Part shown: one piece after another, positions 22,514 through 44,805 of the stretch
Numbering within the stretch: the first letter of the stretch is position 1
Layout of the letters: each line of letters opens with the position of its first letter
Assembly: GCA_965649765.1 (NCBI GenBank)
Contig: OZ287759.1
Span: 1,860,001-1,924,000, forward strand
DNA from: Bispira polyomma
Lineage: Eukaryota
Length of the DNA: 64,000 bases
Direction: 5' to 3'
Program-made: the position numbers and the translations under genes
Notes under the pieces: generated by a model
The model's input: the letters and a program-made list of their open reading frames with translations, nothing else
What the model was told of the DNA's origin: nothing
Database searches by the model: none

Positions 22514-22646
22514 AGTAGTAGTAAGGGGAGTGATTCACGCTGATGATTAGTGCCCAATTTGTGCCCAATCCCATGTACTTGTGCACAAAATGAAAAAAGC
22601 CCGTGACCTTGAGTCTTTTTGCCCTCTTATAGATTTTTTACTTTGA
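22514..22646 (+). repeat. Left terminal inverted repeat (133 bp)
   Basis: Starts AGTAGTAGTAAGGGGAGTG; reverse complement of 44673-44805 with 2 mismatches. Confidence 0.98.
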
Positions 22647-22829
22647 ATGATTACATTATGAATTGTCCTTTCTAATTGTTCTGTCATACCCAACATTATG
22701 GTTTCAGATTTCAAATTACTCTCGCATTCACAACTCAAATTTTGGGAACATCATAAAATACTATTAAACTATGTACATATTTTATTTATTTTTATATATT
22801 ATTATTTTTTTTTTTTTTACTTGCATTTT

Positions 22830-23040
22830 TAAATACTAACATTGAACACTAAATTACAGTCAATTTTTTATTTCAAAATCTTTCCTTCCCCCTGCTTACA
22901 ATATTCTACATTTTTTAAATACAAACATTGAACACTTACATTATTCTACATTTTTTAAATTCCTAACATTGAACACTTACAATATTTTAATTTTTTTTAA
23001 ATTCTAACTTTGAACACTAACTTACAGTCATTTTTTTTAA
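22830..23040. repeat. Subterminal ~40-bp degenerate repeats
   Basis: The core aaat.ctaacattgaacact occurs 4 times. Confidence 0.75.
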
Positions 23041-23064
23041 ACTTGTTCATTCTTTCTACACATT

Positions 23065-23850
23065 CTAACAGATCCCTGTAGACATCATGGTGTCGTTCTC
23101 TGGTAAGCACTTTTCACACACCAACTTTTCTAACAGATCCACGTGATTTTTGCTGACAATACACGTCACCTCCTCTGCAGCCAGGGGCAGTACCTCATAG
23201 ATCTTCTTGTATACCCTCGTCAGCTCACAAAGATTTTTGTACTTCAGGGATATGCCTTTTCTGGTTGGAAACCATTCATTTTCTCCCAGCTCCTGGTTCT
23301 TGCTGTACCAAACTCTGATATTGGTAGTTTGGTAAGGAATGCAAACAGTAGCAAATATATGTTCACCTAAATGCTCTTTGAAATTTACCTGCAAATCTTG
23401 GAACATATCTCTCAGAAATTACTTTATTTTTTCTAAATTATGCACCAGTGCATTGAAGGTTGGCATAGACATATTCAGGTAATTTCCAATACCACCATCC
23501 TTATGAGTATACATTTGAATCCAGACTTTACCCTGTTGACAATGTACCTTTAGATTTCTACCCATTCCCAGATCAAATGGTTTTTCTAATCCCTCAATAA
23601 CACTCTGTTGTGAAATTTTCTCCTGTTTTTTTTCCTCTAGGCTCGACTCAGCTACTTTAACATCTTCTACTTTGTCTTTCTGCATATTGCCCTGAATTGA
23701 CCTTATTTTTTTTATCTCATCTTTTAAAAAATCTTCTGCTGTAGTCAATTTATTTTGATGTAGATTTATTTTAAGTTGAGTCAATTTTCTTTTTTTAATC
23801 TTTTTCTCACCACTCATCTTGCCCTTGTTTTTTATCACCTCCGAATTCAT
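23065..23850 (-). pseudogene. Tandem PC4-like ssDNA-binding/coactivator protein (one in-frame stop)
   Basis: ORFs 23419-23850 and 23065-23406 are in frame across a TAA (KIK*FLRDMFQ). Motifs FDLGMGRNLKV..QGKVWIQM and NIRVWY..PTRKGISL are PC4-like; basic N-terminus. Confidence 0.75.
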
Positions 23851-24542
23851 TTTTTATTGATTTGATTTGAACCAACTATTTCTCTCATTATTATAATCTC
23901 AGCTCATCTATAAATAACAATTACCTCATTTCTTATAACTATATTACATATTATTTATTCTAATTACTTATTTTACAACTAATTACCAATCTAATTAAAT
24001 ATTTATTCTATTAATCACCATCTCACTGAATCAATTATTTATTTTATTGGTCACTGTGGCCTTATTCTATCCATTACTCATTTATCAGTCATATATACCT
24101 TTTTTTCTCTTTCAAATAAATTCTCTCTTGGGAGATTCCCCCCCTCCCCACACACACCCCCATTTTTTCTCTTGATCTTTGTGTAAATATTCTCCCCACT
24201 TTCAACAAGTCTTCCAGTTTTTTGGCTAATATTGGCACACTGATGACACAGTTACATCTATCTGAATCACTCCATTACCATAAACCACTACTCTGACACA
24301 TTATTTAAATTTTGTCATTCTGACTCAACCCTGTTTAATAATTCTGAATATTTGGTCCTTTTTAAAATTTCACCTACTCGTCATTCTCATTACTCAATAT
24401 GTCTCAACTTCTATATTTGGAAACAATGACACATTGTTTGAAATTATGTCATCTATACTTTTTTGGCACTATATAATCCACTGTTAACCTAATTTGGTCA
24501 CTAATAACTAACTTTTTTTAAATTATACAGAAGAGTTTAGAA

Positions 24543-25055
24543 ATGTCTTCAAAATTTGAGAACACAGTAATCTCACCAGAATGTGTATATTGTGGTTTAA
24601 AAGACCCGCATATATGTGAGGCGCATATCAAGGGTAATCCTAGTGCACATTGCAAGACTTGTCATGGTCTCAAACCCCTGACAGAATTTTACTGCACAGA
24701 GATGGTGCATTTTAAATGTCTTTGGTGTAAAAAGTTCTACAAGTTTTCACCTAACCTTGTTATAGTTCATATTTTACTGTGTGAGAAAACTTTGGTCAAG
24801 ACCCTAGGAGAATACATGAAATGTGCCTGCCAGTGTCAACAGAGTGAATCTGGCTAGAATTTTGGAAAGAAAAAGACTGCAAATTCGTTCACTCTTACAG
24901 ATCCTGCACTTCCAGACGACTCCCCCTTTAGAAAAAGGACCTCTAAAGACACCACCTGCTCTCCTGCCAAAAAAACTAAGAGGACTCTACAAGTTTCTAG
25001 AGCAATACAAACTGACCTACCTCATAATGACTCTTTTTTATCTATGTACACCTAA
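24543..25055 (+). pseudogene. Cys/His-rich putative zinc-binding protein with basic, SP-motif tail (one in-frame stop)
   Basis: CxxC repeats (CVYC, CKTC, CLWC). The frame stays open 65 codons past the TAG at 24855, containing SPFRKR, SPAKKTKR and RAIQTD. Confidence 0.55.
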
Positions 25056-25836
25056 TATGTTTTGACTCTATTTTAGTTTTCTACTGATTTTGAAAATGTT
25101 TTTTTTAATTTATGTAAATATTCTTGCTTATATGTATAATTAATACCTAAATGTTTAAGGCTAATAAAATTTGTGAACTTACAAACAATTATTATATCAT
25201 TGCCTGATTTCAGTCTTGATCTTCTATTTACTTATCTCTGTGAGGACAGGTGACAAATTGTGGGAATCTTGCACAAACCAAACATAAAATCATTTACTGT
25301 AAACCATGAAACCTTTTTTTATTGGATATTTTCCTCTTTTTAAAACTTTGAAATAAGAATTTGATTAAAAATACAATAAATGAACACTCTGCATAACTTT
25401 ATTTTCTTTCCACATTTTAAATAAAATATCTCATCTCTTGAACATTTACAATTTTCCAATTTACCTCTTCACACAAAAAAAAAATATTACGGTAATTTGG
25501 CAGAATTAACCTGTTCCTACTTTTTAAGGGGGGGGGGAGGAATTTTTTCTACAAATTTCTACAAAAATGTTTTAGAAATTTATTCAATTACATCATCTGC
25601 TCTATTCTTGGGAAGCTAACAAAAAATCTAATTCATCTTTTCCCCTCTAAAAAATTATTTTCCCTCCAAAAATATCCACCTGAAATTATTTAAACCTAAT
25701 TAACATCTCATGCATAAATTTGAAGAACCTTCATATAAAAAAGACAATTTATTTAGGAAAAAAATTAATTCCAATTTTTTTTTTTCTATGACTTTACTGA
25801 AGCTATTTATTTTGTGAAAAAATACTAGGAAAAAAA

Positions 25837-25986
25837 ATGTCTTTGAAGTGTCAATGGTGTAACAAAGCCTTAGAGGCTTATGTTATGCTCTCTTGTACAC
25901 ACACAACATGTGTAAAATGTTTTGGTGAATGTGAAGCGTGTATATACTGTGGACTACCATTTAATTATGGATTTTTCATCTATCAG
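25837..25986 (+). CDS. RING-HC finger, exon 1 of a predicted spliced RING/Gln-rich gene
   Basis: C-x2-C-x11-C-x-H-x2-C-x2-C-x6-C-x2-C; phase-0 donor CAG|GTTAGT after 25986. Confidence 0.75.
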
Positions 25987-26670
25987 GTTAGTATTTTGGA
26001 AACTATATTCTTCAAAGTTATGCATGAGATTTAAATTAGCTTGAAATAATTTGAGTGTCAAAACATTGTCTTAGAACGCTTTAAATAAACTATATTTCAT
26101 GAACATAAAGCAAAGGGACCTATTTCATTATTCACACTACATAGAAAATTTTTGTATTATAATAAAAAGATTTTATTTTACTAAATTTCTTTGAACAGAA
26201 GCATGCATTATAGGTCTTTTTTCTATCCATCAATAAAAACTATTTTCTCCAAAACAATTCAACTTAAGAAGGCTTCTGTCAATCTCTGTGTTAATGAATT
26301 CACTACCCCAAAGTTATACATACTATCATCTTTAACCATACATTATAAAATAACTTTACTTGTAACTTACTCATAACACCACTGTCCTAAACATAATATA
26401 ATTTGAAATTCAAATAATAGAGGCTGTAGCTGGAGGTAAAAGAATAATATCATATATAAAGAAATTTGGAAACCCAGAACATTTTAATAAGGCATACTAA
26501 TTAAATTTAAAACTCATCTTCCTCTTGTCATATTCTTAATTTACCCAAATTAATTTAGAATTCATCCTCCTCTGTTTCTTTCCTAGATAAAGACCTGGTC
26601 ACCATCCTGTTTGCACCCTTACCTTTATCCCCTTCCTTGTCTACCTTAGGTTTAACCTGAGTTTCAGAAT

Positions 26671-27035
26671 TTACTGGGAGGGCCTTATAAACAATGTGGT
26701 TTCTTCCTCGTCATTTTGTTCAAGATCCCCCATATCAAATGCTGGTACCCTAAACCTAACACCCTGTCCCCTACACCTTTTACATCTAACCAAAATAAAT
26801 ATAATCACTGTGGGAATACCTCCAGCTACAGCCCCTATCGATAAACTTATTTCAATAATGTGTATTGTTTCTCTCTTGTTTTCCTCTGCTTCATCATCAC
26901 CCTCCTGTCCATTCCTCTCGTCTTCCTTCACTTCCACCCTCCCCTCTTCCTTCATTTCCCCCCTGTCCTCTTCCTTCACTTTCACCCTATCCTCCTCCTT
27001 CTCCTCCTCTTCCCCTTCATCCTCACCTGGTTCAT
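26671..27035 (-). CDS. Type I membrane protein A, last exon (acidic stalk, TM helix, cytoplasmic tail)
   Basis: Acceptor tattctatattgtag, phase 1. Glu-rich stalk, TM IIEISLSIGAVAGGIPTVIIFILV, stop-transfer RCKRCR. Confidence 0.65.
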
Positions 27036-27087
27036 CTACAATATAGAATACATATACCACCTATTAATATTTTTTGACTCTATTTAG

Positions 27088-27909
27088 CAACCAGCATGGG
27101 TGATCCCCATTACTGCCCAGCAACCGGAACAGCAGTCTCAGCGACACCTTCAACTCTTACTACCTCCTCGCCAGCAGCCACAACAACAGGCTGTTCACCC
27201 TCAACAGCAGCACCTAAAACAGGCTGATCAGTCTCAACAACCTCGTCAACCTCAACAGCCACACCTACAACAGGCTGATCAGCCTCAACAACAGGCTCTT
27301 CACCCTCAACAGCAGCACCTACAACAGGCTGATCAGTTTCAACAACCTCGTCAACCTCAACAGCAGCACCTACAACAGGCTGATCAGCCTCAACAACAGG
27401 CTCTTCACCCTCAACAGCAGCACCTACAACAGGCTGATCAGTCTCAACAACCTCGTCAACCTCAACAGCAGCACCTACAACAGGCTGATCAGCCTCAACA
27501 ACAGGCTCTTCACCCTCAACAGCAGCACCTACAACAGGCTATTAGGTCTCAACAGCTGCCACAACATCAGGCTGGACAGCCTCAACAGCAGCACCTACAA
27601 CAGGCTATTCGGTCTCAACAGCTGCCACAACATCAAGCTGATCAGTCTCAACAGTAGCTCCTACAACAGGCTCTTTGGCCTCAACAGCTGCCACAACATC
27701 AGGCTGATCAGCCTCAACAGCAGCTCCTACAACAGGCTCAGCATCCTCAACTACATGACCTACAACAGGCTGAGTACCAATTTCAAGAGTTACCTCTACT
27801 CAGTCTTCAAGATTTAGATGATTTTGAAGATTTTCTGAGAGGGGAGACAATGAATTCCTCTATGGAGGTTAATGTTGACTCCTCTAGTGAGGATGAAGTT
27901 TACTACTGA
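27088..27909 (+). pseudogene. Gln-rich repeat + acidic tail, exon 2 of the RING gene (one CAG>TAG stop)
   Basis: Phase-0 acceptor tttttgactctatttag. Frame-preserving 105-nt and 66-nt tandem units; continues past the TAG at 27655 to LSLQDLDDFEDFL...DSSSEDEVYY*. Confidence 0.7.
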
Positions 27910-28320
27910 TGTAGATTTTGAAGAAGTATCTTATTATCACTCAGTAGTAGATTTTGTAGACGTATCTTAATATCATCTTTTTTATTTCTTTTATTAACTC
28001 AGTAGTAGATTTTGTAGAAGTATCTTACTATCACCTTTTTTATTTCTTTTTTTAATTAAATCTTTTAAAAACTTCTCTTCCAAAGTCTCTTATTTCTATC
28101 AACACAGAACAATAATCATTTATCACAAATTTGTTATTGAAGTGTATTACTGAATCCTTTTTTATACAACTATGTAGATTTTCTAGAACTATCTTAATAA
28201 TACCTTTTTATTTATTTTTTAAAATGAATATTAAATGTATATTAAATGTTTTGATAACTTCACCTTCAAAGTCTATTTTTTCTAACAATAAAGAACAATA
28301 ATCATTTCACACAACTGTGA
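27910..28320. repeat. Local degenerate repeats (gtagattttgtagaagtatctta x4, plus a ~190-bp-period duplication)
   Basis: The motif recurs at ~27912, 27947, 28005 and 28173; caaagtct..gaacaataatcattt at ~28081 and ~28267. Confidence 0.7.
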
Positions 28321-28425
28321 TATTTTTATTTGATTTGTTTTCACAATAACTACACCACCTCCTCAAACAAATAATTCTACCACCACCACCTTAAAGATTT
28401 CTACATCTTAACTAGCTTATAATAC

Positions 28426-28727
28426 CATTTGTCAATTCAGTACATCCTTTGTCAGCTCAGGTATGGGATAATAGGTACAGTCAACTTGGCTACGGACAGT
28501 CTGGAGCACCATTTTAGGAATATTTTCCTTTAAAAGGAAAGTGTCTATCTGAGTGATCTTTCTCTCGTATATAATCAAAATACTGATTTATCATCCGAGA
28601 TTTTGTAAATGTTTGCATTTGTCACAAGCCTGCAATACAGCTTTCCCCCCCTCAGAAAACAACATTCCTGTGCTTCCCCCAACCCCATCCAACAAACTAA
28701 AATAGTGCTCAAAATTAAACACCTCAT
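28426..28727 (-). pseudogene. Type I membrane protein A, signal peptide + Cys-capped ectodomain exon (frameshifted; not in the ORF track)
   Basis: MRCLILSTILVCWMGLGEA|QECCFLRGGKLYCRLV..., then after a frameshift LIIYERKITQIDTFLLKENIPKMVLQTVRSQVDCTYYPIPELTKDVLN. A strong acceptor tttttttgtttgtag lies just upstream of the ATG. Confidence 0.6.
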
Positions 28728-29260
28728 ATTTATCACCTACAAACAAAAAAGATATCTATCAGATATGGATATAGTCATTTGAGAGACAAAACAAATAATC
28801 TCTCATCCCGTTTTACAACGAGGTCATGAATAAAAAGAATAAGCTAACTACTTGATTTGCTCGGGGCTAAACTTCACCCGTCTGCTGAGAAATGTTTCCT
28901 AGAAATACCCATAAGATGCAACAACATTCAAAATTAAACCACCATTTAATTCTAAAAACCATAGAAATGCAAGAAATAGACTAATTTTACAGTAGAATTT
29001 CGTTTATAGTAACTGGACGAATTGTCTGTCCCTGATCGAATAAGGTGTCCGTGCAAGTTGCCTGTTCCGTTTTTCCGAATTAGGTGCCCGCCCGAATCTT
29101 GTGGACTGTCTTACCACCTCCGAGTCATATGGCCCCTCCGAATTGTATAATTTAAACAATAATTGTCCTTCCTTGAATATTACTCTTGTTACTGTTTTAC
29201 CTGAATCGAATATCCTCAAATCTTATGAACCATTTCATATCACAATTGTCAATAATTACT

Positions 29261-29487
29261 GCTTGTGTTTATAATTCGATTGCCTGACATAAATTGGACA
29301 CCATATAATAAATGTGTCATAACTTCAAATTAAATAACTTTATTGACCTAACAATACTGTACTTCCTTGAATATTGGTACTGTAATTGTTTTATATGAAA
29401 CTCGTGGTCCATTTTCTACCTAGATTATTATTTAAAATTTGACAGTCGATTTACAACTGGCGGACGAATTATAACCAGAGGCAGTAC
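29261..29487. repeat. ~220-bp direct repeat, copy 1 (copy 2 at 31835-32045)
   Basis: Shared blocks cataacttcaaattaa, tattgacctaacaata.tgtacttccttgaatatt and cgaattataaccagaggcagtac. Confidence 0.9.
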
Positions 29488-29880
29488 ATTAAACTGTCAG
29501 GTGACATTAATAACACCCTCCACCAATTAAGATCAGCCACCAATATACATCGGTCTGTCAGTCCTGTGTCAGTCAAATCCGAGCAGTTACAAACTGTATA
29601 TATGATCGGATGATTTACAACTAGCGGGCGAATTTTAAACACAGGCAGTATAACCACATAACGCTGTGTAACCCTTTAATGCATATTTTATATTTTTCTC
29701 ACCTCAAATCTTTCTCAAAACTGAAATAATCAGAGATTCCAAGATATTATATTTTCCAAAAGTCGCTTTCAAGGTGACCTTTCACTCTCTACCCTTTACC
29801 GAAATTTCAGTTTGTACTAAATATCATTCTAAAACTTATTCGAATAAGATATTTTTTAATACAATGGTAACATACCGTGA

Positions 29881-30980
29881 TTATTGAAGGGACAGACTAT
29901 CAAATGATCCGAAGGTTGTATCTAAATCTACTTCTATATCTATGTCTCCTCCATTCACATTATCATAACTTTTATAGATATTTTCTTCAACTTCCTCTTG
30001 GTGGTTGTGTAAATGTTGACATTGAGGTTTTTCATACCTATTACAAGAAAGAAATTATTAAAACTATTTTTCTGAAATATTTCTGTGATTAAAAAATTGG
30101 TTTTATATTTTAAATATTAAAAAAATAATTAATTAATATAACTAATATACCAATCACTGTCATTTTCGAAGAATTCAATCTCTCTGGAAGCTGTATATAT
30201 GGGATTAGGTTCCATTTCAAAATCTTCCAATATTAGGTTGTTTGGTGGACTGTTGGAGCTTGCATGTTGTTTTTTACAGTTGCAAATAACTACTGTTATT
30301 CCAAAAATAAAACTCAGTAGAGTACCGATTACAGCTATAATGATAGCTATATCATTAGATATTCCAGTATTACCCTTTGGAGTGATGACAACATCGACTG
30401 TAAAGTCACTGACTGAGCTTATTTCATTTTCTACATCTGCTATGGTAGGGGAGGTAATTTCTGATACATAATTGGAAGTAGTCAGTTCTGGTACTGTATA
30501 TTTAACTGTGTGCACTAGTACTTTTGATGCTCGAAATCTCAGCGGTACTTGAGTAGAAATCTCAGTACTTAACTCAATTTTTGTAACCTCGATAATGGAG
30601 TTGGTGGTCAAGGATGAGGTGGTGCTTTTCAATCCAACAGTGGTCAAAGATGAGGTAGTGGTTTTCAATGCGACACACATGTTGGTGATAATTTCAATAT
30701 CTTTAGGAATCTGATTAAGAATATCACAATCAAATTCTCTCATGGAAATAAATGAAATCCAATATATCTTCGGAAAACTATGAAGAATAACTTGGATATC
30801 CATAAGTTTAACATCCTCAAAATATACCCTTTCAACTAGAGTATTTCTCCCTTCAAATTTCGGGTTATTCACACTCCTACAATTCACTAAAGTTAACCGA
30901 CAAGTACACCTGTAATCACACATTTCTATTGACAGGAATGATATTATACTCAAAAGCAATAGAATCTTGAAGTGAGTCAT
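29881..30980 (-). CDS. Type I membrane glycoprotein B, two exons (30980-30151 + 30037-29881, 328 aa), apparently intact
   Basis: Signal peptide, LRRNT-like CDYRCTCRLTLVNC, Ser/Thr-rich stalk, TM IAIIIAVIGTLLSFIFGITVVI. A 113-nt phase-2 GT-AG intron restores W-YEKPQ...ENIYKSYDNV...SLSLQ*. Confidence 0.8.
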
Positions 30981-31695
30981 TTTAATAGAAATTATTTTAA
31001 AATTTGTTAATTCAATGTCCTATTATATACCACTAGTTCACAGAAATTTATATGTAACTGTTCTCTCCAGTACCCACAATCAAAACTGATTCATTTCTAC
31101 AAACTCTCTATTTCTCAAGTTCTGGATCTTCTATCTCTTGCATAAATAAACATAGCCGCCAAACATAATATCATTAATCTCCTTATAATTGTCACTTTTA
31201 TTGCTCTCTCTGTTTTGGATACAATCTTAACTGTTTTATTACCTAAACAATTCAGTTGAAGTAGATGAATATATAGAAACTGACTTTTCAGTTTGGAACT
31301 AAGAGTATGTTTCCATACAGACGATTGTTTTTTATATTATTTTTTTAGGAGATTTGTAATGGCTAGTTTTTTTTGTTTTTGTTTTTTTTTTTTTTTTAAC
31401 TAGACCGAATAATGAATCCCTATTTAGTGAGATTCCTTGCTGTTATTTTGAAGGCTGAATCATGAAAAGGGACAGAACGGCTTCCATAAGGAAAATGTTG
31501 TAAATCAAAATTGGCATATATAGAGGTAGAATCTGCTAAAAATAAATACACCCCCTCATTCCTTATATATGATATAGTTGCCGATTTTGACTTATTCCAT
31601 GCCAACGAGGTACAGATCAATTAATATAAAATAAAAACGAAATCACAATCACTGAAACAACACTGTCGGGCATGTTATGACAATTTAAATTCTTT

Positions 31696-31832
31696 TAATT
31701 ATTTCCTCAACAATTATTTTCTCGTCATTTGTTTCTACGACAATTATTTTCCTCGACATTTGTTTCTACGTCAATTATTTCCTCGACAATTTATTTCATC
31801 GACATTTATTTCTGCGTCAATTATTTTTTCTA
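31696..31832. repeat. 15-bp minisatellite, about 9 copies
   Basis: Alternating caattatttcctcga and catttgtttctacga units. Confidence 0.9.
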
Positions 31833-31834
31833 TT

Positions 31835-32045
31835 GCTTGTGGTCATAAATCGACCGCCTGTTATAAATCGGCCACCATACAATAAATGTTTCATAACTTC
31901 AAATTAATTTAATGTATTGACCTAACAATATTGTACTTCCTTGAATATTATTATTGTAATTGTTTTACTTTAATTCTATGGTCCATTTTGTACCAAGACT
32001 ATCAATAATTACAACTGGCGAGCGAATTATAACCAGAGGCAGTAC
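31835..32045. repeat. ~210-bp direct repeat, copy 2
   Basis: Matches 29261-29487. Confidence 0.9.
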
Positions 32046-32218
32046 CGTCTCGCTAGATATTTTCGTCATTGGTATTTTAAATGTCTTTAAATTATTTGTT
32101 TTGAATTGATTGATAAATCGAATCTGTTTTAATATTTAAAAAAATTGTATATTTTTAAAACTTTTTTCAATTTAGTTTGGAACGGGGAGTTTTGCATAAG
32201 CTCCATTATCGTTCACAT

Positions 32219-32420
32219 TGTGTTTATGTTATTCGTCATCTTATTTTGTTAGGCGATGACTAAAAGACAATATTGGTTTATTATGGACTTTTGTTTATTA
32301 TTCGTCATTCGTTATTTTGTTTGGTGATGACTAAAAGGCAATATTAGATTACTCAAAATGTGGATTTGTTTATTATTCGTCATCCGTTATTTTGATAGAG
32401 GATGACTAAAGCTAATATCT
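32219..32420. promoter_or_regulatory. Three ~70-bp repeats, each with an inverted GTCAT(C)..(G)ATGAC pair, upstream of pPolB
   Basis: tgtttat.attcgtcat..ttattttg....gatgactaaa at ~32221, 32292 and 32367. A regulatory role is inferred from position only. Confidence 0.55.
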
Positions 32421-32548
32421 TTAATCTTTGAGCAAATATCATCACCGAATGACATCACTCACTATCACATTATTTCTATAAATAAGTTAAATAAGTAGAA
32501 GACATTTGATATGCATATAATTGATTGAATTGATAGGAACAGGAGAAA

Positions 32549-35500
32549 ATGGAGTGTCCATATTGCCACAAGTTTCTGCAAAGGAAAATACATCTTCAAA
32601 GACATTTAACTATTAGTCGAATTTTGAGGAGTGTTAAAAAAATATTATGTCTATTTTGTCAAAGTCACTTTACTGATGTTAACACTTTAATAAGACATAT
32701 GAATACCTGCATTCCTTATCATTTGTCTCTTAATGTTATAGCCAAGTGTTCTTTTTGTAAGAAGTGTTTCAAAAATACAGATCAAAAAGAAAGCCATGAA
32801 AAAAGATGTTTAAAATGTTATAAATGTGGAAGTATTCTAAAAAGTCTTATAGAAAAGAACATTCATCTTAAAAATTGTAGAGTTGACAATTTGCAACAGA
32901 GGATGGAAAAGATTGTACTCATAAAATCAAACGTGTTAAAATGAATGAAAGGACTCGTGAATCTAGGTTTTGAGAATTTGAAAGATTATGATGATATAGA
33001 GAATTCGGGTAATAAACACCTAAATTTTCTTTGTAAAAAATGTAAAGTTTATTTTGATACAAACTGGGATTTGTATATTCATAATATCTCGTCCCACAAC
33101 CAAACAGGTAGGCAAAGAGTCTTACAAGAACCAGTTCTAGAACCAGATTATGAATTTGAATCTGATGATATGGCAAGAGCATACAATACCAATGTGCAGC
33201 ATATATTAGCTCAACACAACAGAGGGGCTTTAAGGTCAACCTATAATTTTCCAACTAACGATCTTTCTAGGGGAATGTGGGAAATTTCAGATCACTTGAA
33301 TGAAATTTACAATGACCAAAACTACGCCTTTAAAATTAACATATCACTAGGTCTGATTCTCAGAAATACTGGAAATGATGAGTACTGTTATTACGTACCC
33401 TTTTATAATAATCAAGTTTTTCCAGTACCTGTAACCATATCTCGCAGAGCTAATATCAGACATCTCTTTCTCAGAATTAGGCGATTAGATATCCCCGATT
33501 TCATTCGACAACAGAGACCAAACAGTAAATGGGTCCCCGCAATGATTACAAATATAAATTATGTTGTATTTCCTACCTCATATCCTTTAGGTAAATTAAT
33601 TGGTTCTCTCCCAGGTTACATAAAGAATTCTCGAGCAATTAGGGGTTGGATAACAATAGTGGAGGTAATTTTTATGAAGATAATTTATGTGCGTTTAGAG
33701 CTTAGGTGCTACATAAACAAGGAGAAGAAGAAGATTGTGAGAAATTGTTAAACTACCATTATCAATGGTGTGATTTTAATAATAAAGAAGAACATCATTC
33801 CAATTTTTCTGGATTAAATTTGAGTGAACTCGACCTTTTCGAAAATTGTTTTAAATTAAATATCAATGTTTATTCACTAAAACCACAGGGTGTGGTATAA
33901 ACGGTTTATAAATCTATGGAAAATTTTAAACAAACTATGAATCTAAATCTCTATAAAAATCATTTAAGGTATATTCAGGACATTTCTCTATATAGTAAAA
34001 CATATCAATGCATGGAATGTGAAAAAATCTTTAAAAATTAATTTAAACTGAAAACTCATCTTGATAAATGTTTTAACAGAACACGATACATATTCCCAGG
34101 GGGGTTTTACTCTTCACCCAGAAGCATTTTTGATAAGTTAGAGAGTTGTGGAATAATGGTTGATTCACAACGAAGGTTTTATCCTTACTTTGCTGTTTAT
34201 GATTTCGAATCTGTTTTATTGAAGGAACAAGACACCACCTTAGACTGCAAATTAAAATATACTGTTAAACATAAACCCATCAGTGTTTCAGTTTGTTCAA
34301 ATATAGTGCGTTATGAAACTGCCAAATGTTTTATTGAAACGGATGTAGATAAACTTCTCCATAAAATGATCAACTATTTGTGTGAAATAAGTGAGGTAGC
34401 TGCACGATTAGGACAAGAAAGAAGGGAAGATGTATTTGAACAAATTGTTTGTTTGAAAGAGAACAATTTGCAAGGACAATACACTCATAAACACATTGAA
34501 GGTCTAGAAAACGAATTTGAAAGATACATATCACAAATACCAGTTTTAGGATTTAATAGTGGAAAATATGATTTAAATTTGATTAAAGCAGAATTAGCTG
34601 GACACTTGTTTAAAGACGGAGAAAAAGGTAACTATACAATCAAGAGAAACAACAATTACTTATCTCTAAATTCGAGTAAATTTAAATTTTTGGACATTAC
34701 TAACTATATTGCACAAGGAGTTAGTTACTCTAAGTTTCTCAAGTGTTATGAAGTAGAAGAAACCAAAGGTGTTTTTCCTTACGAATGGTTTGATTCAGTA
34801 GAAAAACTTGAATGGACAGAATTACCACCTTATGAGTCATTTTATTCGACATTAAAACACTGTAATGTTCTGGAAACATATGAAAATTATACAATACTAC
34901 AAAAATCATGGAAAGAAAAGAAGATGATAAATTTTAGAGATTACTTACAATGGTACAATAATCTTGATGTAGAACCTTTCTGTACTGCTATAACAAACAT
35001 GCAGGAATATTACTTTAATAAAAGTATTGACATTTTCAAAAATTACATTTCAGTTCCAGGAATTGCTAGAAAAAGCTTTTTGATTCTACAGATGCTAAAT
35101 TTGCTCTATTTGATAAAAACAATAGGGATTTATATGATACCATGAAAAATGGAATTGTAGGGGACCATCTATTATTTTCAGACATTATCATGAGGTTGAC
35201 AAAACTTTTGTTAGAGAAAATAAATCCAAACCAGTCAAACATAGAAGGAAGGGATTCCAATGCATTATATCTCTGGAGAATTTCCCAACCTATGGCTACA
35301 GGAATATATGTACGAAGACATAAAGATAAGGCTTTCAAAGGTGAGGTACCAATGAAATATTTAGAACAATTCATCTGGATAGATTACGTCGCTGAACAAG
35401 AAAATGTTCAAATACAACACGGTTTAAATTCAAGAGGAGAATAACGAATTGGCCCCTACTTAGTAGATAGATATGATGCAAAGAATAAAAGAGTGCTGGA

Positions 35501-37411
35501 ATTTTTAGAATGTTTCCATCATCAACATAGAAACTGTCCCTTAATAGGAAAAAATCAAAATCCAAAATATCATAAAGACAGAGTCATTTCTAAAAAGGGA
35601 AATAGAACGAAAAGACTACATAAAATCTTTAGGATATGACATAGTTGAAATGAGGGAATGTGAGTATCAAGCAGATATTAAGCACAAAACAGAACATATC
35701 AGAGAAAAATATTTATCCAAATTTTATATCAAACACAAAGGTAAGGTTTCAAGCTCTAAACTCATTGAGGCTGTTAAAACAGAAGAAATATTTGGAGCAA
35801 TGGAGGTTGATATAGAAGTGCCTGATTCTTGGAAAGAAACTAACATCTTTTCGAATGGACTCTCCCCAAGTGATTACTTTAGTGAAATGTCCCCTTTCTT
35901 TGCAAGGACAGAGGTACCTTTTGAGGTTGTAGGAGCTCACATGCAGAGACATGCAGAGAATTTTGATTTATCTAAAAAACCTAGAAATTCATTGGTTGGA
36001 GGAATGAAAGCAGAAAGAATTTTTTTAGCCACACCCCTTTTAAAATGGTATTTAGAACATGGTATAGAAATCACTAATATATATCAGGTTGTAGAATATG
36101 TTCCGAAAAATTGTTTTAAAAATTTTAGTCAGAAAATATGTGATAGAAGGAGAGAAGGAGATTTAACCCCTGACAAGGCCCTAATAGCTGAGCTCTCGAA
36201 ACTTTTGGGAAACAGCGGCTTTGGGGGAACAATTATGTCCAAGGAGAGACACCTGGATATTAAATATGTGAAGGGAGAAAGAGAGGCAAGTTTATTAGTC
36301 AATGTCCCTACTTTTAAAAATTTAACTGAATTAGGAAACAGTATGTATGAGGTTGAAAAGTTTAAAAATAGAATTAAACTTGATTTACCAATTCAAATTG
36401 GTTATTTTATTTTACAATATGCCAAGTTAAAACTGTTGTCTTCTTATTATGATTGTCTAGACAGATATATTCCGAGATCAAACTTTGAAATGTTAGAAAC
36501 AGACGCAGATAGTGCCTACTATGCACTTAGTCAAAGTTCTTTTGAAAAAAAGTATTAGACCCTCCTTACTGTCTGAATATCGGAAAGATGTGTGTGGTTT
36601 TTGTTCAAATCTTATCACTCCGAAGTGGTTTCCTAGATTGTGTTGTTCAAAACATATAACTTTCGACAAAAGAACCTTGTCTTTATTTAAAATTGAAAGT
36701 CTTGCTACTAAAGCTATATGCCTGAATTCGAAGACATACATAATGAGAGAACTAAATGAGTCTGATAAAATTTTTTGTAAAGGCATATCAAAGTCAAGTC
36801 TCAATAATGCCATGGAGTTGTTTGAAAGTGTGCTTCATAACCAAATACCACTTTCTTCAACCAATATCGGTTTTAGAGCAAAAAACAATATAATTTTTAC
36901 TTACACACAGGATAGAGCAGGCTTCTCGTACTATTATATCAAAAGGGAGGTTTTGGATGACGGAATTCATACCAAACCATTAAACATGGTTTTGAAACCA
37001 TGGAAACAAAAAATTGTTATAGTTGAAAATGATCTTGACCTACTATCAAACGGTTTTTGCTTTGAGTTGAAAGTCGATGGAAAGACGTATTCAAGTGTTG
37101 AAGAATACTTTCAAGAAAGGGAACATGATTTCAATCCAAATGCAAACACTAGTTTGGAGGAGAATTGGGAGTGGTTTCAAGAAAGAGACAAGATTATGCA
37201 AGAAATTTTAAAATTAAAAGTAAAACAGTGTTGTAATTTTGCTCAGATCTTAAAAAATACTGGGAATTCTTATATATGTTACAATGCTTCAGATAATTTG
37301 TATTGGAATGTGGGTTTACCGCAGAGACTAGTGAAGGTTATAAATAAAGATTCTCATCCAGGTCAAAATCAAATGGGAGAGATATTGATGAAAGTTAGAG
37401 AAACATTATAA
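32549..37411 (+). pseudogene. Protein-primed DNA polymerase B with N-terminal zinc fingers, internal nuclease-like insert and C-terminal NADAR-like domain
   Basis: ZnF CPYC..HLQRH; exonuclease motifs VYDFES, FNSGKYD and YNNLDV; KGVFPYEW; polymerase motifs DSNALY, KLLGNSGFG and ETDADS; end YIKREVLDDGIHTKPL. Multiple stops and frameshifts. Confidence 0.95.
37037..37411 (+). other. NADAR/YbiA-like domain in frame with the pPolB C-terminus
   Basis: LLSN..F..KVDGKTYSSVEEYFQ / W...RDKIM.EILKLKV.Q...F.QILKNTG / YW.VG / PGQNQMGEILMKVRETL follows the NADAR consensus LSNF..DG..Y.S.EHYFQ...KF.Q....L..TG...WG.G...G.N.LG..LM.VR..L. Confidence 0.85.
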
Positions 37412-37413
37412 AA

Positions 37414-38046
37414 ATGTCCATAAAATTTGAAGATCCAGCAAGTATACTTATTCCTGGTTGTAGTAATTCTGGTAAAACCACTTTTCTGTATCAGTTGTTA
37501 AAGTGTAAGGATGCAATGTTCCAGAAACCTGTATGTAAAATACTATACTGCTATTCTCTTTGGCAAAATATTTTTGATAAACTACAAGATGAAATAAATA
37601 TAAAGTTCATTAAGGGTCTGCCTGAGGAGATAGAGATAGATAGCATGAATGACGGGAATCATAATATTTGTATAATAGACGATTTGCAGGAAGAAGTGTC
37701 TGGAAATAAAGTTATTGAAAAATTATACACAACCCTCTGTCATCATTATCACCTCACAGTAATAACTATTTTACAAAATTTATTTTATCAAGGTAAAAGC
37801 TTAAGAACAATCAATTTAAATAGTCATTATTTGATATATATTTAAAAACCCCGAGATATAAATCAAATAATGTATTTAGGAAACCAAACTGGGTTAAAAA
37901 AGACTTTAGAAGAAGCATATAAAAATGCAACAGACGAAAGCTACAATTATCTCTTAGTTGATCTCTCTCTGCACTCATCTACCCAATATAAATTAATAAG
38001 TCATATTTTGCCGAAAGAAGATACTGTGGTATATCTTAGAAAGTAA
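37414..38046 (+). pseudogene. A32/FtsK-like genome packaging ATPase (frameshift near 37840)
   Basis: Walker A GCSNSGKTT, Walker B ICIIDDL, ILQNLF, RTINLNSHY, then FKNPRD and YLLVDL in another frame. Confidence 0.95.
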
Positions 38047-38057
38047 GTAATATAAAT

Positions 38058-38380
38058 ATGAAGGGTAGGCTTAAAATGAATGGAGATTTTGTAAGGTTTT
38101 TATTAAGCACACACATCAAACAAAGATATGCAATAATAAAAACTTTAAATGAAAGACAGACTGGAGTAATTTGGAAATAATTCTCAATATTCTGAGATTG
38201 GTTAATTTGAAAAAGTACAAAACATAAATCAGTAAAACTTTTAGACTTTGGAAGATAATAACCAATAAAAAATGAAAAAGAAAGGAAAAGATTAAACTCC
38301 TAAAAAATAATGACAAAAAAATAATAAGTCTCTTAGATTTGTTTAGGAATGATCTATTAAATTTAATAACAGAATGAATA
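38058..38380 (+). pseudogene. Small basic Polinton ORF downstream of the ATPase, frameshifted
   Basis: MKGRLKMNGDFVRFLLSTHIKQRYAIIKTL...; position typical of Polinton core clusters; broken frame. Confidence 0.45.
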
Positions 38381-38787
38381 AATTTGTGTTGATACCTTAT
38401 GATCGATACAGAATGTTATTAGAATCAAAGGATTAGAGTAGTGGAGATAATCCAAATCCTAAAAATATGATAACTGATACAATATCAAAAGAAACTGAAG
38501 AAAAGAAAACAAAGGAAAATGAAGAAATAGAAAAAAACAATTCTAACAATTTCATTGAAAGTAAAGAGGGAAAAAAAGAGGAATTGGTACAGCATATGAC
38601 AACAGATAAATTAGATGAGAACTTGAAAAACAAGAAAGAACTAAATGAAGAGGTAAACCAAAGGCGTTTGGGACTAAAAGAAATTAAAATACCCCCACCC
38701 GGATTACCACCAAATAAAGACAAAAAGAAAACAGAAAAGGAGAATAGTGCATACAAACACTGGGTAAAAAAATGGGATAAATATTAA
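38374..38787 (+). pseudogene. Conserved small Polinton ORF preceding the integrase (one in-frame stop)
   Basis: MNKFVLIPYDRY start is in frame with ORF 38467; contains PPPGLPP and terminal W..KW..Y. Confidence 0.6.
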
Positions 38788-38835
38788 TATAAAAAGAGAA
38801 AAAAAGCCACAATATGCTTGGATTTTAAATAGACA

Positions 38836-39959
38836 ATGGACGAAAATCAGGAAAAATATCTACACAACCTTTATTACAATCCAAAAAATGCAGTGTCTTA
38901 TAGTGGTTTCAATAAATTTTATAGTTTCATCTAAAAAAACAGTCAGCAAAATTTTTCCAAAAAGGATATTAGGGAATGGTTGGGAAAACAAGATGCTTTT
39001 GTCTTGCATCGACCTGTGATAAGACATTTTAAATGTCCAATTACCATTGCAGTGAGAAAAGATCAACAATGGAATTCAGATACAGCCAATATGAGAAAGT
39101 TTGAAAAAGTCAATAAAGGTTATGGTCATTTTTGTGTAGTGATAGATACTCTAACTAGATATCTGTGGACCTTTCCAATGCAGACACTGACAGGAATAGA
39201 AATGAAAAAAGGTTTTGAAAATTTAATGAAACAGATAAAACCAAAATTTCTATTCACTGACAAAGGCAATGAGTACATGCCTAATATTTAGATTGGTTAA
39301 AGGAAAAAGGAGTTCAACATTTCATGAGCACCAATGAAACAAAGGTGGCGATGGCTGAAAGAGTAATAAAAACAATCAAACTAAAACTGTACCGAAGGAT
39401 GACAGCAGAAAACAATTATAAATGGAATGATGCGCTTGCTAGTCTCACAGAGTCCTACAACAATTCCTTTCATAGAATGATTAAAACCACTCCTTCAAAG
39501 GCGAGGGAAATGGATGATTATGAGTTATGGAAAAATCAATATATTAAAGACTACGATGTGAAAAAACCAAAATTAAAGAAACACAAAAAACCAAGATCAG
39601 AAAAATTACCTTATAAATATAAAATAGGAGATATAGTAAAGGTTGCGTATCTATCCAGACCTTTCGAGAGAGAATATGATGAGAAATATTCTGGTGAAAA
39701 TTTCACCATTGCTGATAGAAATATAAATCAGGGTAAGGCTCAGTACAAATTGAAAGATCTAAATAACGAACTAATATTGGGAAATTTTTTTAATAAGGAA
39801 TTGCAAAAGGTTTATGTTTCTAAAGAGACCACATATCGAATAGAAAAAATTCTGAAAAGTAGAAAAAGAGGGGGTAAAAAGGAATATTTAGTAAGGTGGG
39901 AAAATTATTCCTCAAAATTCGATAGCTGGGTGAAGGAAGAAGACATTCAGGATATATAA
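38836..39959 (+). pseudogene. Retroviral-like (RVE) integrase with C-terminal chromodomain
   Basis: LYYNPKNAVSYSG; DDE triad WNSD, TDKGNEY and AERVIKT; YNNSFHRMIK; chromodomain YRIEKILK..EYLVRWENYSSKFDSWV. Stop and frameshift present. Confidence 0.96.
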
Positions 39960-39997
39960 GTTAAATGTAAAACTATGCAAGGTAAAAATGAACCAAA

Positions 39998-40366
39998 ATG
40001 AATCAATTATACCTACATATTCATTCCACCGATTCGATAAATCTTCACCCACAAAATGATGCATGGGAATTTATTGTAGAAATAGTAGAGGGTATAGAAC
40101 TTGAAGGGAGATGGAAATGTGGTCTAGCAGAAATTAGATATGATAAAGAGGTTGTAGAGGAAATATATGTATATTGTGACATTGTTGATGAAAGTCTGAT
40201 TGAAGATTTTTGTAGACCTATTTTAAGAGTGGTAGATAAAGCTGAACATTACAATCAAATCTACTATAAAAGGGTGAACAGAACAAATCTAGAGAGAATT
40301 AAGGTATATATAACTAGTAAAAACTTAAAAAAACTAAACATTTCAAATACCCCTACGTGGTTTTAA
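39998..40366 (+). CDS. Minor capsid protein (penton, single jelly roll), compact; C-terminus possibly frameshifted
   Basis: LYLHIHSTDS..HPQN..EF...IELEGRWKCGLAEI..IYVYCDIV..PILR..YYKRV..I.VYI. Confidence 0.85.
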   Translation: MNQLYLHIHSTDSINLHPQNDAWEFIVEIVEGIELEGRWKCGLAEIRYDKEVVEEIYVYCDIVDESLIEDFCRPILRVVDKAEHYNQIYYKRVNRTNLERIKVYITSKNLKKLNISNTPTWF

Positions 40367-40387
40367 GTCTTCAAAAAGACAATAACA

Positions 40388-40675
40388 ATGGTTAATTGGA
40401 ATAAGGTTTGTGAAAATATGAGGGAGGGGAAATTGAGAATGGATAGAAAACTATATATGATAGGAGAACAGGCAGGTGGTGGGGGAAATAATGAAAACGA
40501 ACTAGTTAGCATAATTTCTTCTACAGAGCAGCAGGTTGATATGGCTAGATCAGAACTAAAAAAGAAACACAAAAAGGGAAAAGTAGTTAAAAGAAAAATC
40601 AAGAAAGTTACAAAGAGGAAGAAAATAAAACATAGAAAGAAAAAACAAGTTAAAAAAACAAAGAAAAGAAAATAG
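40388..40675 (+). CDS. Basic virion core-like protein with adenain-type glycine site
   Basis: QAGGGG, ISSTEQQVDMARSEL, and a Lys/Arg-rich C-terminus; located between the penton and MCP genes. Confidence 0.65.
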   Translation: MVNWNKVCENMREGKLRMDRKLYMIGEQAGGGGNNENELVSIISSTEQQVDMARSELKKKHKKGKVVKRKIKKVTKRKKIKHRKKKQVKKTKKRK

Positions 40676-40771
40676 TGAATATACCTTAAAAAATATATAC
40701 ATATATAGTGTTAGAGTCAAATAATCTTTAGTTCAATTCTTGCTTTTGAGTGAATAAAAAACAAAATTAAA

Positions 40772-42075
40772 ATGAATGTCTTACAGGAAAAGGTGGCTCT
40801 ATTTCAAAAACTTTTGATAGATCCATCAGTCCATCATATTGATTGGGTTGAATACAGACCAACCGGTCAAATTAAAAGTGGAAATGTAATTGAATTTAAT
40901 GTAACAGGGGATGGGGCGGATTATATAGATTTGAAGAAAAGTAGATTGCATATTTCAATGAAAATTACAAATAGTAATGGAAGTGACTTAGCGTCGACTG
41001 CTATAGTTGGTCCCGTCAATTTAACATTACATTCTCTCTTTCGTCAGGCAGATCTAACTCTACAGCAAATCAATATTTCACCAGGTGTTGGAATTAACTA
41101 TCCATACAAAAGTTTGATAGATGTATGGTTACATAATAGTTTTGTGAGTCAGCAGGGACAGTTGGAAAATGAATTGTTTGCAAATGACACAGCTGATACT
41201 CATAATGATGTAACTGGAGATGACAATATAGGGTTTGCTACTAGGCAAGACAGATGTGCAGCAAGCACAGTAGTGGACTTATGCGGCCCCTTACATGTGG
41301 ATATTGCCGATCAAGATAGACTCATTGTAAACAGAGTGCAGATCAATCTAAAATTATATCCCAGCACTGATAGATTCAGATTAATGACAAAGGATGGAGA
41401 TAAGGAGTATAAGATAGAAATTATTAATGCTGCTTTAAAGATCTGTCAGGTAAAATTAAGTCCCGAGCTCGTACTAGCTCATGCAAAGGCTTTGAAGGTG
41501 GGACCAGCATTATACCCTTTCTGGCAAAGCAAATTTAAGACTTTTACCATACCAAAAGGTAATATGATGTGGAGTGATGATGGAACCTTTCATGGAGAGG
41601 TTCCTAGCAAATTAATTGTGGGTTTTGTTCCAGGAGAAGGTTATAGCGGTAGCTATACTGTAAATCCATTTAAATTTCATCACTACCATTTAAATTACTT
41701 GGAATTCAGTGTAGATGGTGTGCCCGTTCCATGCAGACCACTTCGATCAAATTATAAAGAAGGATATTTGACTAACAGACCTACTTTTACTGGAGGACAA
41801 TACGCAGAAGCATATAATAGCTTGTTTTCTTTGGAGATATGGTGAAAATGAGAACAATCTTATTAAATATACAGATTATCTGAATGGATATTGTCTTTAT
41901 GTGTTTAATATAGACAGTAAATGTGAGTGGTGAACTTAAATCAGAACGTAAAAAGGGTCACACAAGAATAACTGTAAATTTTGGAAAAGCTTTAGTAGAA
42001 AGTGTAACTGCAATATTATATGCTCGTTTCCCATCTATGTTAACTATTGATGAGGCAAGAGTTGTAGAACAATGA
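40772..42075 (+). pseudogene. Major capsid protein (double jelly roll), C-terminal frameshifts
   Basis: WVEYRPT, YIDLKKSRL, PVNLTLHSLF, NYPYKS, NPFKFHHY; ends KGHTRITVNF...TIDEARVVEQ* with the stop overlapping the protease ATG. Confidence 0.93.
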
Positions 42076-42518
42076 ATACTTCTGAAATAAAAGAAAAAAT
42101 GTTGAATGATAGATTCATCAGCAAATATTATGGCGGTGTATATGCAGCAAATGAATTACCAGTAAAATTTCAAAATTTACCTAAAATTCTGATTGTAAAC
42201 ACAAAACCTTACCCTCATGAAGGGGAACATTGGGTAGCAATGTATGTAAGTAAATAAGAGGCGGAATATTTTGATTCTTTAGGTGATTTAGCTCCGAAAA
42301 GTTATGAAAATTTTCTGTTGAGACATCAGGAGAGTTATAGCAAAAATAACGCAAGAGTACAAAGTTACAAGAGCATGTTATGTGGGGAATATTGTCTATA
42401 TTACGCTTACCATAAATTTAGGGGAAAGAGCTATACTGATATCTTAAAGACTTTCGATAAAGATTATAAAGTTAATGATGTGAATATAAAATCATTTTAT
42501 ATTTCGAAATTCATTTAA
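42072..42518 (+). pseudogene. Adenain-like cysteine maturation protease (one in-frame stop)
   Basis: NT...GEHWVA, EYFDSLG, VQ...CGEYC catalytic motifs; both ORF pieces are in the same frame. Confidence 0.95.
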
Positions 42519-42571
42519 AATGCCAATGGTTTAACCTTTTAATCAATAATCATCAAAGTAGATAAATCAAT

Positions 42572-42910
42572 GCTGTCAAAGTAAATATTGACACATTATT
42601 TGGTTAAATTAACAAAGTAAATAATGATGAGGTAATTGGATAAACAAAGCTGTCAAAGTAAATAGTGAGACATTATTTGGTCAAGTTGTCAATGTAAATA
42701 ATGATGAGGTTGTTGGTTAAACAAAGCTGTCAAAGTAAATAATGAGACATTATTTGGTCAAGTTGTCAATGTAAATAATGATGAGGTTGTTGGTTAAACA
42801 AAGCTGTCAAAGTAAATAATGACAGAGTATTTGGATAAATAGTCAAAGTAAATAATGATGAGGTAATTGGTTAAACAATGCTGTCAAGGTAAATAGTGAT
42901 GATGTAATTG
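42572..42910. repeat. 77-bp tandem array (about 4.4 units, each with two related subunits)
   Basis: gctgtcaa at 42572, 42649, 42726, 42803 and 42880. Confidence 0.95.
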
Positions 42911-43025
42911 ATGAATAAATTATGAATTGTGAGTAATGTTTTGGTGAAATAAAAGAAAATGACTCAATTTTAAAAAAGGATATAAATTGGGAAAGCAACC
43001 ACATTGCAGTCAGAAAGGAAACAAG

Positions 43026-43640
43026 ATGGCAGAGAATACAACTCAAAGGAGAACAAGGGAAGATGAGACTGACTGTGTTGTTGCAGCCTCTGCATCTAGT
43101 TATAGAAGAAGAATAGATATGCAAGACAGAATAAGTGAACTGACAAAAAAGTTCTGCAATTTCCAATGTGAAGAAGAATCACTGGCTATGACTAGGGATT
43201 GGGTAGATTACAAAATCTTCAAAAACAGATTAGAAAGTTTCAGAGGTTGGCCAAAAAGTACCGGAGTGAGTGGAGAGGATGCAGCCAGGGGGGGATTTCG
43301 ATACACTGGTTAAGGTGACAGTTGTGTATGTCCGTGGTGTTACATGCAGGTGAAGAACTGGAAACACTTTGATGAACCGTTGAAAATGCACTCCAAACTC
43401 AACCCAAATTGCGAATACGTGCAAACTGTATTCCCTAGTGAATTGTCAAAAATTGAAAGAGGTAATTATAAGTTGTATCAAAATCGTCTGGAAAGCTACA
43501 GAGGGTGGAGCGATGGCAAGATAGTAAAACCAGAAAAGTTAGCCAGAGCTGGATTGATGTACACTGGTTTAGGGGACAGATGTCAGTGCCTCTGGTGTTC
43601 TATAATTTTCCATTCCTAGGAGTACCTGGACGAACCCTAA
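43026..43640 (+). pseudogene. Inhibitor of apoptosis-like protein with two BIR domains (stops; second BIR truncated)
   Basis: RLESFRGWP..AARGGFRYTG*GD..CPWC-x16-H-x6-C; RLESYRGW..LARAGLMYTGLGDRCQCLWC. Intronless. Confidence 0.93.
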
Positions 43641-43751
43641 CTTTCATGTAAATAATATTGAAAATAAAGGTAGTTTAGAAAAAATAGTTGTTCTCATTTC
43701 ACCTTTAAAGAAAAGGGAAAAAAACAACAACACAAAAACAGTAACTTTAAC

Positions 43752-44083
43752 ATGTCACATCTATTGTCAATAAACAATCCAGATTGTGATTCAAAAGCCA
43801 TTATGAGTTGGAAGAAAGAAGGTGAAGGGTTTCAAAATGCTTTAGAACTAAGAGATTTAACAGAGTTCTATAAGAACCAAATCTTTTACAAGAGTATATG
43901 TCAAAGAACTACACATTTGGTTTTGTTACATAAAATAAATATAAGTGAAAGAATTCATTTATGTTTTGAAATAAAAGAATTAACAATGAAAGAACTATTC
44001 ATTAAATGATATGACACAGACAGCAGCTACCACTTTAGCATAAAAAGAATAAAAGGTTTGAATGCGGTGAGATTAAAATTTTA
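43752..44083 (+). pseudogene. Hypothetical protein (frame continues past the TGA at 44007)
   Basis: 85-aa ORF plus 24 further open codons; no family recognised. Confidence 0.35.
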
Positions 44084-44167
44084 AAAAAGGGTTACTTGGC
44101 TATACAAATAAAGTAATAAGGTATAAGAGGGAGGTAGACTTCATAAAAATTTCATTCATTTGTAAAA

Positions 44168-44626: not shown

Positions 44627-44672
44627 AAGAAGGTGGTAGTATGTGGAGGTAGCAAAATCCTAATGGATTCAA

Positions 44673-44805
44673 TCAAAGTAAAAAATCTATAAGAGGGCAA
44701 AAAGACTCAAGGTCACAGGCTTTTTTCATTTTGTACACAAGTACATGGGATTGGGCACAAATTGGGCACTAATCATCAGCGTGAATCACTCCCCTTACTA
44801 CTACT
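44673..44805 (-). repeat. Right terminal inverted repeat (133 bp)
   Basis: Ends CACTCCCCTTACTACTACT, followed by TSD TGTAAG. Confidence 0.98.

Follow-up and report, generated by a model that had tools for sequence, protein, structure and literature searches.

What kind of protein is encoded by a gene that joins an N-terminal RING domain to a long Gln-rich repeat and an acidic tail, and what might it do for the element that carries it? The gene lies in a 64,000-nucleotide stretch (the window) of the AT-rich, 1.04 Gb animal genome of Bispira polyomma. The initial annotation took its product for an immediate-early transactivator resembling ICP0 and IE2, with the Gln tract as functional core. From that interpretation, a Maverick RING protein with an acidic tail and a Gln tract of variable length survives comparison between copies; the Gln tract as functional core does not. 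The accessory gene is real and conserved. On balance we lean towards a small RING protein acting as a ubiquitin ligase or as an adaptor for one, its acidic tail serving for docking and its Gln tract as a spacer.

The gene lies inside a Maverick/Polinton element, as had been supposed (Table 1). The terminal inverted repeats occupy 22514-22664 and 44655-44805; such repeats with (AGT)n ends, together with a 6-bp target duplication, are the features by which Mavericks/Polintons are recognised (PMC8097293), and the element possesses them. Pfam finds matches to rve, a chromodomain and Pox_A32 among the core genes (rve and A32 below the cut-off). Two genes that Pfam does not name we take, from their motifs and the gene order, to be the polymerase (PolB) and the capsid. 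With PolB and capsid putative, the Maverick core set of protein-primed PolB, rve integrase, packaging ATPase and capsid is present; in the window copy the core genes are interrupted. The gene order runs from PC4-like genes through a Cys-rich gene, the RING locus, a second membrane gene and zinc-finger ORFs to the polymerase, followed by the ATPase, the integrase with its chromodomain, capsid-region genes and a BIR gene. Flanks of nine divergent loci were examined, and the seven long enough to show gene order have this same Maverick order.

Table 1. Features of the RING locus and its element (window coordinates).
Feature	Position	Strand	Description
Maverick/Polinton element	22514..44805		151-nt terminal inverted repeats; 6-bp target duplication
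Imperfect inverted repeat around RING exon	25680..26055		48 nt (25680-25727 / 26008-26055); only in the window's subfamily group
RING gene, exon 1	25837..25986	+	150 nt; ATG at 25837; 50-aa C3HC4 RING, spacing 11/2/6; phase-0 GT donor at 25987
RING gene, predicted intron	25987..27087	+	1101 nt; holds the last exon of the opposite-strand gene
RING gene, exon 2	27088..27909	+	822 nt including the stop, 273 codons; Trp-bearing head, Gln repeat, acidic tail
Gln/Pro/His tandem repeat	27172..27772	+	105-nt and 66-nt periods; confined to the window's subfamily
Acidic Ser-rich tail	27778..27909	+	43 aa; CK2-type sites; ends acidic-[LV]-Tyr; conserved part of exon 2
Opposite-strand gene, exon B	26671..27035	-	Phase-1 acceptor, Glu-rich stalk, predicted transmembrane helix and cytoplasmic tail; ends early in window copy
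Opposite-strand gene, exon A	28426..28727	-	Phase-1 GT donor at 28425; predicted signal peptide and small LRR-like ectodomain with disulfide cap; window copy frameshifted

Other features of the element can be summarised briefly. Two adjoining small ORFs lie near the left terminal repeat (23065-23853, minus strand), one with a weak PC4 match (E 4e-4). The Cys/His-rich gene directly upstream of the RING gene (24543-25100, plus strand) has no Pfam match and is kept in distant subfamilies; its window copy has a deletion near 24844, and other copies contain a P-x-W-I-I-P-T-T string that resembles the head of RING exon 2. A NADAR domain (E 1e-13) is found at 36497-37411 (plus strand), at the C-terminal end of the polymerase region. 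The element's IAP gene (42963-43619) has two BIR domains and no RING, and a further BIR-like ORF lies downstream of the BIR gene in two of five other elements. Non-coding tandem repeats occur at 42563-42910, 31697-31826, 32215-32410 and 27939-28055, with periods of 77, 15/31/46, 75 and 58 nt. Outside the element, degraded fragments at 2630-4939, 56134-58503, 17553-18383 and 63085-63513 presumably derive from reverse transcriptase and endonuclease of LINE type, and Maverick copy L056 carries an insertion of a similar LINE.

The two-exon anatomy first proposed for the RING gene is borne out in its details. An AG acceptor stands directly before 27088, the stop codon ends at 27909, and the exons together make 50+273 = 323 codons with one in-frame TAG (27655-27657); as it stands, the window copy would give a 239-aa product without the acidic tail. 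The Gln units described as 35 and 22 aa long resolve into 17+18 aa and 22 aa, and both tail motifs that had been quoted, SSSEDEVYY included, are present. The joining of 25986 to 27088 is predicted from sequence conservation. Three available read runs on a related copy cover the introns evenly and contain no joint at the predicted splice sites; they therefore behave as DNA and are uninformative on expression. The inverted repeat around the RING exon scores 72 in the window, where shuffled sequence reaches at most 40, but in none of 36 divergent loci does it surpass the shuffle maximum, and it was rejected as a general feature.

DNA searches found the RING locus at about 16 other places in the genome, and 17 stretches of close copies were retrieved for comparison; 12 contain the RING exon, which is an open 150-nt exon in six. 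A protein search of the genome gave 59 matches, down to about 35% identity. From the divergent loci 38 were retrieved and 36 examined for the splice donor, and 34 of these have a phase-0 GT after the RING exon. The same RING gene is thus present in several Maverick subfamilies of B. polyomma, which keep the RING, the phase-0 donor, an exon 2 that begins directly after a pyrimidine-rich AG, a Trp at its position 4 and an acidic Ser-rich end. Both ends of the protein are under purifying selection. Against the window copy, dN/dS of the RING is 0.24 (p 3e-4), 0.29 (p 0.0015) and 0.23 (p 0.017) in the three significant pairs of five, with 0.45 and 0.70 non-significant; for the tail it is 0.12 (p 3e-6) and 0.20 (p 0.011) in two of three pairs, with 0.38 non-significant. 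The values of 0.24 and 0.12 belong to the pair with the most distant close copy.

The zinc ligands of the window RING follow the pattern C-x2-C-x11-C-x-H-x2-C-x2-C-x6-C-x2-C, in agreement with the C3HC4 domain originally called. Its best Pfam match is zf-C3HC4_3 (PF13920; E 3.7e-5, 23.9 bits, under the 27-bit cut-off), the family matched also by all 14 aligned relatives (35-70% identity), which keep seven or eight of the ligands at identical 11/2/6 spacing. A RING fold is predicted with high confidence (AlphaFold2, pLDDT 85), with BIRC7 (TM 0.73), IDOL and XIAP among the top PDB matches. The best E values are 0.02-0.06 and the VIA Z scores of 6.4-6.7 are tied among CTLH, BIRC7, GID, MIB1 and RNF4, so that no fold match reaches E 0.001 and every Z is below 8. 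The ligand set, cross-brace spacing and modelled fold are together those expected of a C3HC4 RING domain. A shared fold by itself shows no function. Ubiquitin ligase activity is likely.

Several points count against a ligase. RINGs of the IAP and IDOL type are C-terminal and dimerise through their free end, unlike the N-terminal RING of the Maverick gene. The residue after the last Cys is Gly, Ser or Thr in all 14 RINGs and Arg or Lys in none, and the Pro of the usual C-P-x-C loop is likewise absent from all 14. Two of five RING pairs and one of three tail pairs lack significant selection. A cationic linchpin is common in RING ligases and not universal: Arg is the commonest residue, and XIAP works with Tyr instead (PMC12326332). 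The missing linchpin and loop Pro would suit a catalytically weak or dead RING, a decoy or scaffold that heterodimerises or competes with a RING ligase of the host, for example an IAP. Since the element's own IAP is BIR-only, such a RING might supply or block RING function in trans. The BIRC7 RING aligns to the window RING without gaps (E 0.29 and, in a second search, E 0.058), and no RING-like pattern lies within 1.5 kb downstream of the BIR gene in the window or in any of the five other elements examined. However, the likeness to BIRC7 is statistically weak and tied with other RINGs, XIAP is active without the cationic residue, and the RING and BIR genes, 17 kb apart, are tied by co-residence alone. 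We regard a decoy as possible but unlikely.

The variable part of the protein is its Gln tract. As the initial annotation proposed, its length differs between copies: exon 2 measures 516-1100 nt in the 11 copies, window included, that have both acceptor and tail. The Gln frame stays in register from the acceptor and head to the tail motif in nine of them (binomial p 0.0014, inflated since the units are multiples of three). Three of the nine are free of stops from head to tail and the other six have 1-5, a scatter attributable to decay, as Gln codons are one transition from stop. In the RING-exon tree (25 rows, each subfamily represented by at least one and the remaining rows omitted) the Gln-bearing copies form one clade (support 98/96), whose sister is a short Gln-poor form; one row inside the Gln clade has lost exon 2. 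The Gln content is 33-41% in three copies of this clade versus 3-10% in 14 second exons of other subfamilies, which are 45-106 aa long with 19-35% Asp/Glu. Confined to one clade, the tract would be a derived, dispensable expansion. Between head and tail the spacer measures anything from 45 to more than 300 aa, and most forms of the RING protein in this genome are only about 95-155 aa long.

This distribution bears directly on the proposal that the protein is an immediate-early transactivator or anti-silencing factor of the ICP0/IE2 kind, whose Gln-rich and acidic tracts would activate transcription. The evidence for it can be summarised as (i) CK2-type sites in every one of the 17 second exons and, in the window copy, a tail that is acidic-hydrophobic and contains a Phi-x-x-Phi-Phi motif; (ii) a position upstream of the polymerase, where the 'Oncoid' regulators of adintoviruses sit (PMC8502044); (iii) one adintovirus Oncoid among the viral fold matches of the RING (rank 36, E 0.046). 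Against this, the Gln tract is missing from all other subfamilies, which makes the Gln-activator reading weak, and the protein has no DNA-binding domain. A basic NLS pattern was found in none of the 17 second exons, LxCxE and CR1 were absent from these and from the window protein, and SIM-like matches share no position, with three rows having none; the conserved SIM-like motifs and NLS expected of the ICP0 family are accordingly missing from these exons, as judged by pattern. An LxCxE-like string does overlap the last zinc ligand in three of 14 RINGs. In the viral model search the window RING matches many RINGs, and ICP0 rows (ranks 21-50, rmsd 4.1-6.6) fit worse than many others; no ICP0 chain appears among the 14 and 9 PDB sequence matches. 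The likeness to ICP0 and IE2 looks generic, spacing and fold being nearer to short RINGs of the BIRC7/IDOL/XIAP type, and we consider a transactivator unlikely. The viral RING proteins IE2, PE38 and ICP0 are themselves E3 ligases (PMC4376880, PMC3174244), which speaks for the ligase reading.

The tail ends in acidic-[LV]-Tyr in 15 of 17 second exons, against 0.8-3.2% of shuffled tails (the pattern was chosen post hoc and the rows are kin); in one subfamily (L063, L069) the tail is less acidic and lacks the final Tyr. The PUB-binding motifs of p97 and OTULIN, DDLYG and EDMYR, have the form acidic-acidic-[LM]-Tyr (PMC13434393). The 15 tails resemble them, often with nothing after the Tyr, which we treat as a lead only; a predicted complex of the tail with the PUB domain of a host UBXN6-like protein scored 0.02, with controls not folded, and counts neither for nor against it. 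A host UBXN6-like gene with PUB and UBX domains occupies a single 395-codon open frame in L096 (931-2115, minus strand). Readings of the exon-2 head as a calcineurin PxIxIT-like motif, and of the tail as a CAP-Gly or proteasome HbYX motif, fit some subfamilies only and were rejected.

The initial annotation overlooked a second gene, one coding exon of which lies inside the RING intron. Exon B has a phase-1 acceptor in place of a start codon, and exon A, beyond the RING gene, encodes a predicted signal peptide and an 84-aa domain before its phase-1 GT. All 14 close copies in which this donor could be mapped have it, as do nine of 11 distant loci tested, in phase 1 throughout, and the acceptor of exon B is clear in eight of 14 distant loci. 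Splicing of the opposite-strand gene is predicted from this conservation. Selection is significant in four of four pairs for exon A (dN/dS 0.16-0.55) and in two of five for exon B (0.27-1.34). The domain of exon A, modelled at pLDDT 93, looks like the capped N-terminal part of extracellular LRR proteins (LRIM1, Z 7.3; TLR5, 6.8; GPIb, 6.5; all below 8; best Foldseek E 0.23), and the product is predicted to be a type-I membrane protein with a mini-LRR ectodomain. A second predicted type-I membrane gene, intronless, lies at 30129-31019 (minus strand) and encodes a signal peptide, a Cys-capped ectodomain, a Thr-rich stalk and a membrane helix; it has homologues in other subfamilies and is possibly a paralogue of the interleaved one.

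Each gene of the pair has one exon within the predicted intron of the other, and in the window the two acceptors stand back to back, 52 nt apart. Of 37 distant loci tallied, 23 have all four parts, and every one of these shows the order RING (plus), exon B (minus), exon 2 (plus), exon A (minus). The exon-A and RING trees contain the same main clades. Both genes are broken in the window copy. The interlocked pair is the more unusual feature of the locus. A bolder model would make it a two-gene switch, the genes of the RING regulator and the mini-LRR surface protein being read through one another so that one silences the other, with the RING-gene tail mimicking the p97/VCP C-terminus and capturing host PUB-domain cofactors; we think this quite improbable. 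In L030 the minus repeat frame runs into exon B through a join that looks precise but is best read as a microhomology deletion.

That the repeat is instead coded in another frame, whether an open Asn/Leu/Ser frame or a stalk exon (Val/Ala/Glu/Pro) belonging to the opposite-strand gene, is hardly credible. In its favour, two older copies have the minus Val/Ala frame open across the repeat and the +1 frame shows 0-3 stops, as against the stops in six of nine in-register Gln frames. But the latter are explained by decay, and wobble is free in the Gln frame only (CAG 50, CAA 45). The +1 frame has frozen third positions (74 C:5 T versus 27:68 for core genes, p 1e-19) and the minus frame skewed ones (p 2e-6), both figures being inflated by the ancestry of the repeat units. 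The Gln frame also joins the acceptor to the selected tail, and no strong phase-compatible donor for a minus middle exon was seen. The repeat is therefore read in the Gln frame, as originally assigned.

We propose that the RING of the putative ligase or adaptor would bind a host E2 or a partner RING and the acidic tail would serve as the docking site for a host target or cofactor, with the Gln repeat likely a dispensable spacer between the two. The interlock could couple or oppose transcription of both genes. Subfamily comparison reduces the protein to two short modules, the RING and the tail, and shows that an eye-catching Gln repeat can be a lineage-specific spacer. The locus would add a RING member of the ubiquitin system and a mini-LRR surface protein to the Maverick toolkit, as in host-manipulating DNA viruses, in a mutually interleaved gene pair maintained over deep divergence. 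ORF finders miss short spliced exons, and Maverick accessory genes would consequently be mostly unannotated.

Searches beyond this genome gave generic similarity. Word searches, which are weak evidence, returned no homologue, whether the query was the RING exon, the tail or the alignment of RINGs, and a full HMMER scan gave three matches (E up to 0.001), all to generic multi-RING proteins. Viral contigs gave two matches to the window RING but no locus, and none to the RING of a second subfamily; a single metagenome match was a chance Cys match. In the ESM Atlas the RING leads to generic RING clusters only and exon A to LRR leads below 0.9. These sequence searches thus found no orthologue of the RING gene outside this genome. 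In a word search of the open-access literature neither the gene nor an interleaved Maverick pair is described; the supplementary maps of PMC8502044, outside its scope, may show RING-type Oncoids.

Accessory genes of adintoviruses and Polintons include 'Oncoid', IAP and Bcl2 homologues (Starrett et al. 2021, PMC8502044). Like the Oncoids, the RING gene lies upstream of PolB, encodes paired CXXC zinc ligands and CK2-type acidic sites, and has a RING-like fold match to one Oncoid model. Unlike them, it lacks LxCxE and CR1 and is a two-exon gene interlocked with an antisense gene; the words 'RING' and 'splic' occur nowhere in the main text of PMC8502044. With the short RING-HC ligases BIRC7, XIAP and IDOL it shares BIRC7's spacing without gaps, PF13920 as best family and the top PDB folds. 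It differs from them in its N-terminal RING, below the Pfam cut-off in the window, and in having no BIR or FERM domain, linchpin Arg or loop Pro; with no BIR in the same chain and a RING that is not C-terminal, it is not an IAP of the BIR-RING type. ICP0 and IE2/PE38 likewise have a C3HC4 RING near the N-terminus and a disordered Ser-rich, acidic remainder (PMC3174244, PMC4376880), but no sequence kinship with them was found, the longer RING loops of ICP0 fit worse, and conserved SIM and NLS are lacking.

The genomic arrangement also has partial precedents. Intact vertebrate Mavericks are reported to be intronless (PMC8097293). Nematode Mavericks, like the present element, carry intron-containing cargo within a variable region close to the left terminal repeat (bioRxiv 10.1101/2022.07.12.499685); that cargo comprises krma kinases and wasp proteases interpreted as captured from hosts, whereas the RING pair is mutually interleaved and remains fixed throughout deep subfamilies. 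Animals also have nested gene pairs in which exons lie within an intron of the opposite-strand gene, and transcriptional interference has been proposed as a constraint on them in flies (PMC3814207). By analogy, such interference may operate between the interlocked Maverick genes. Unlike the nested animal pairs, the Maverick arrangement is reciprocal, each gene having an exon in the other's intron, within a compact, virus-like genome.
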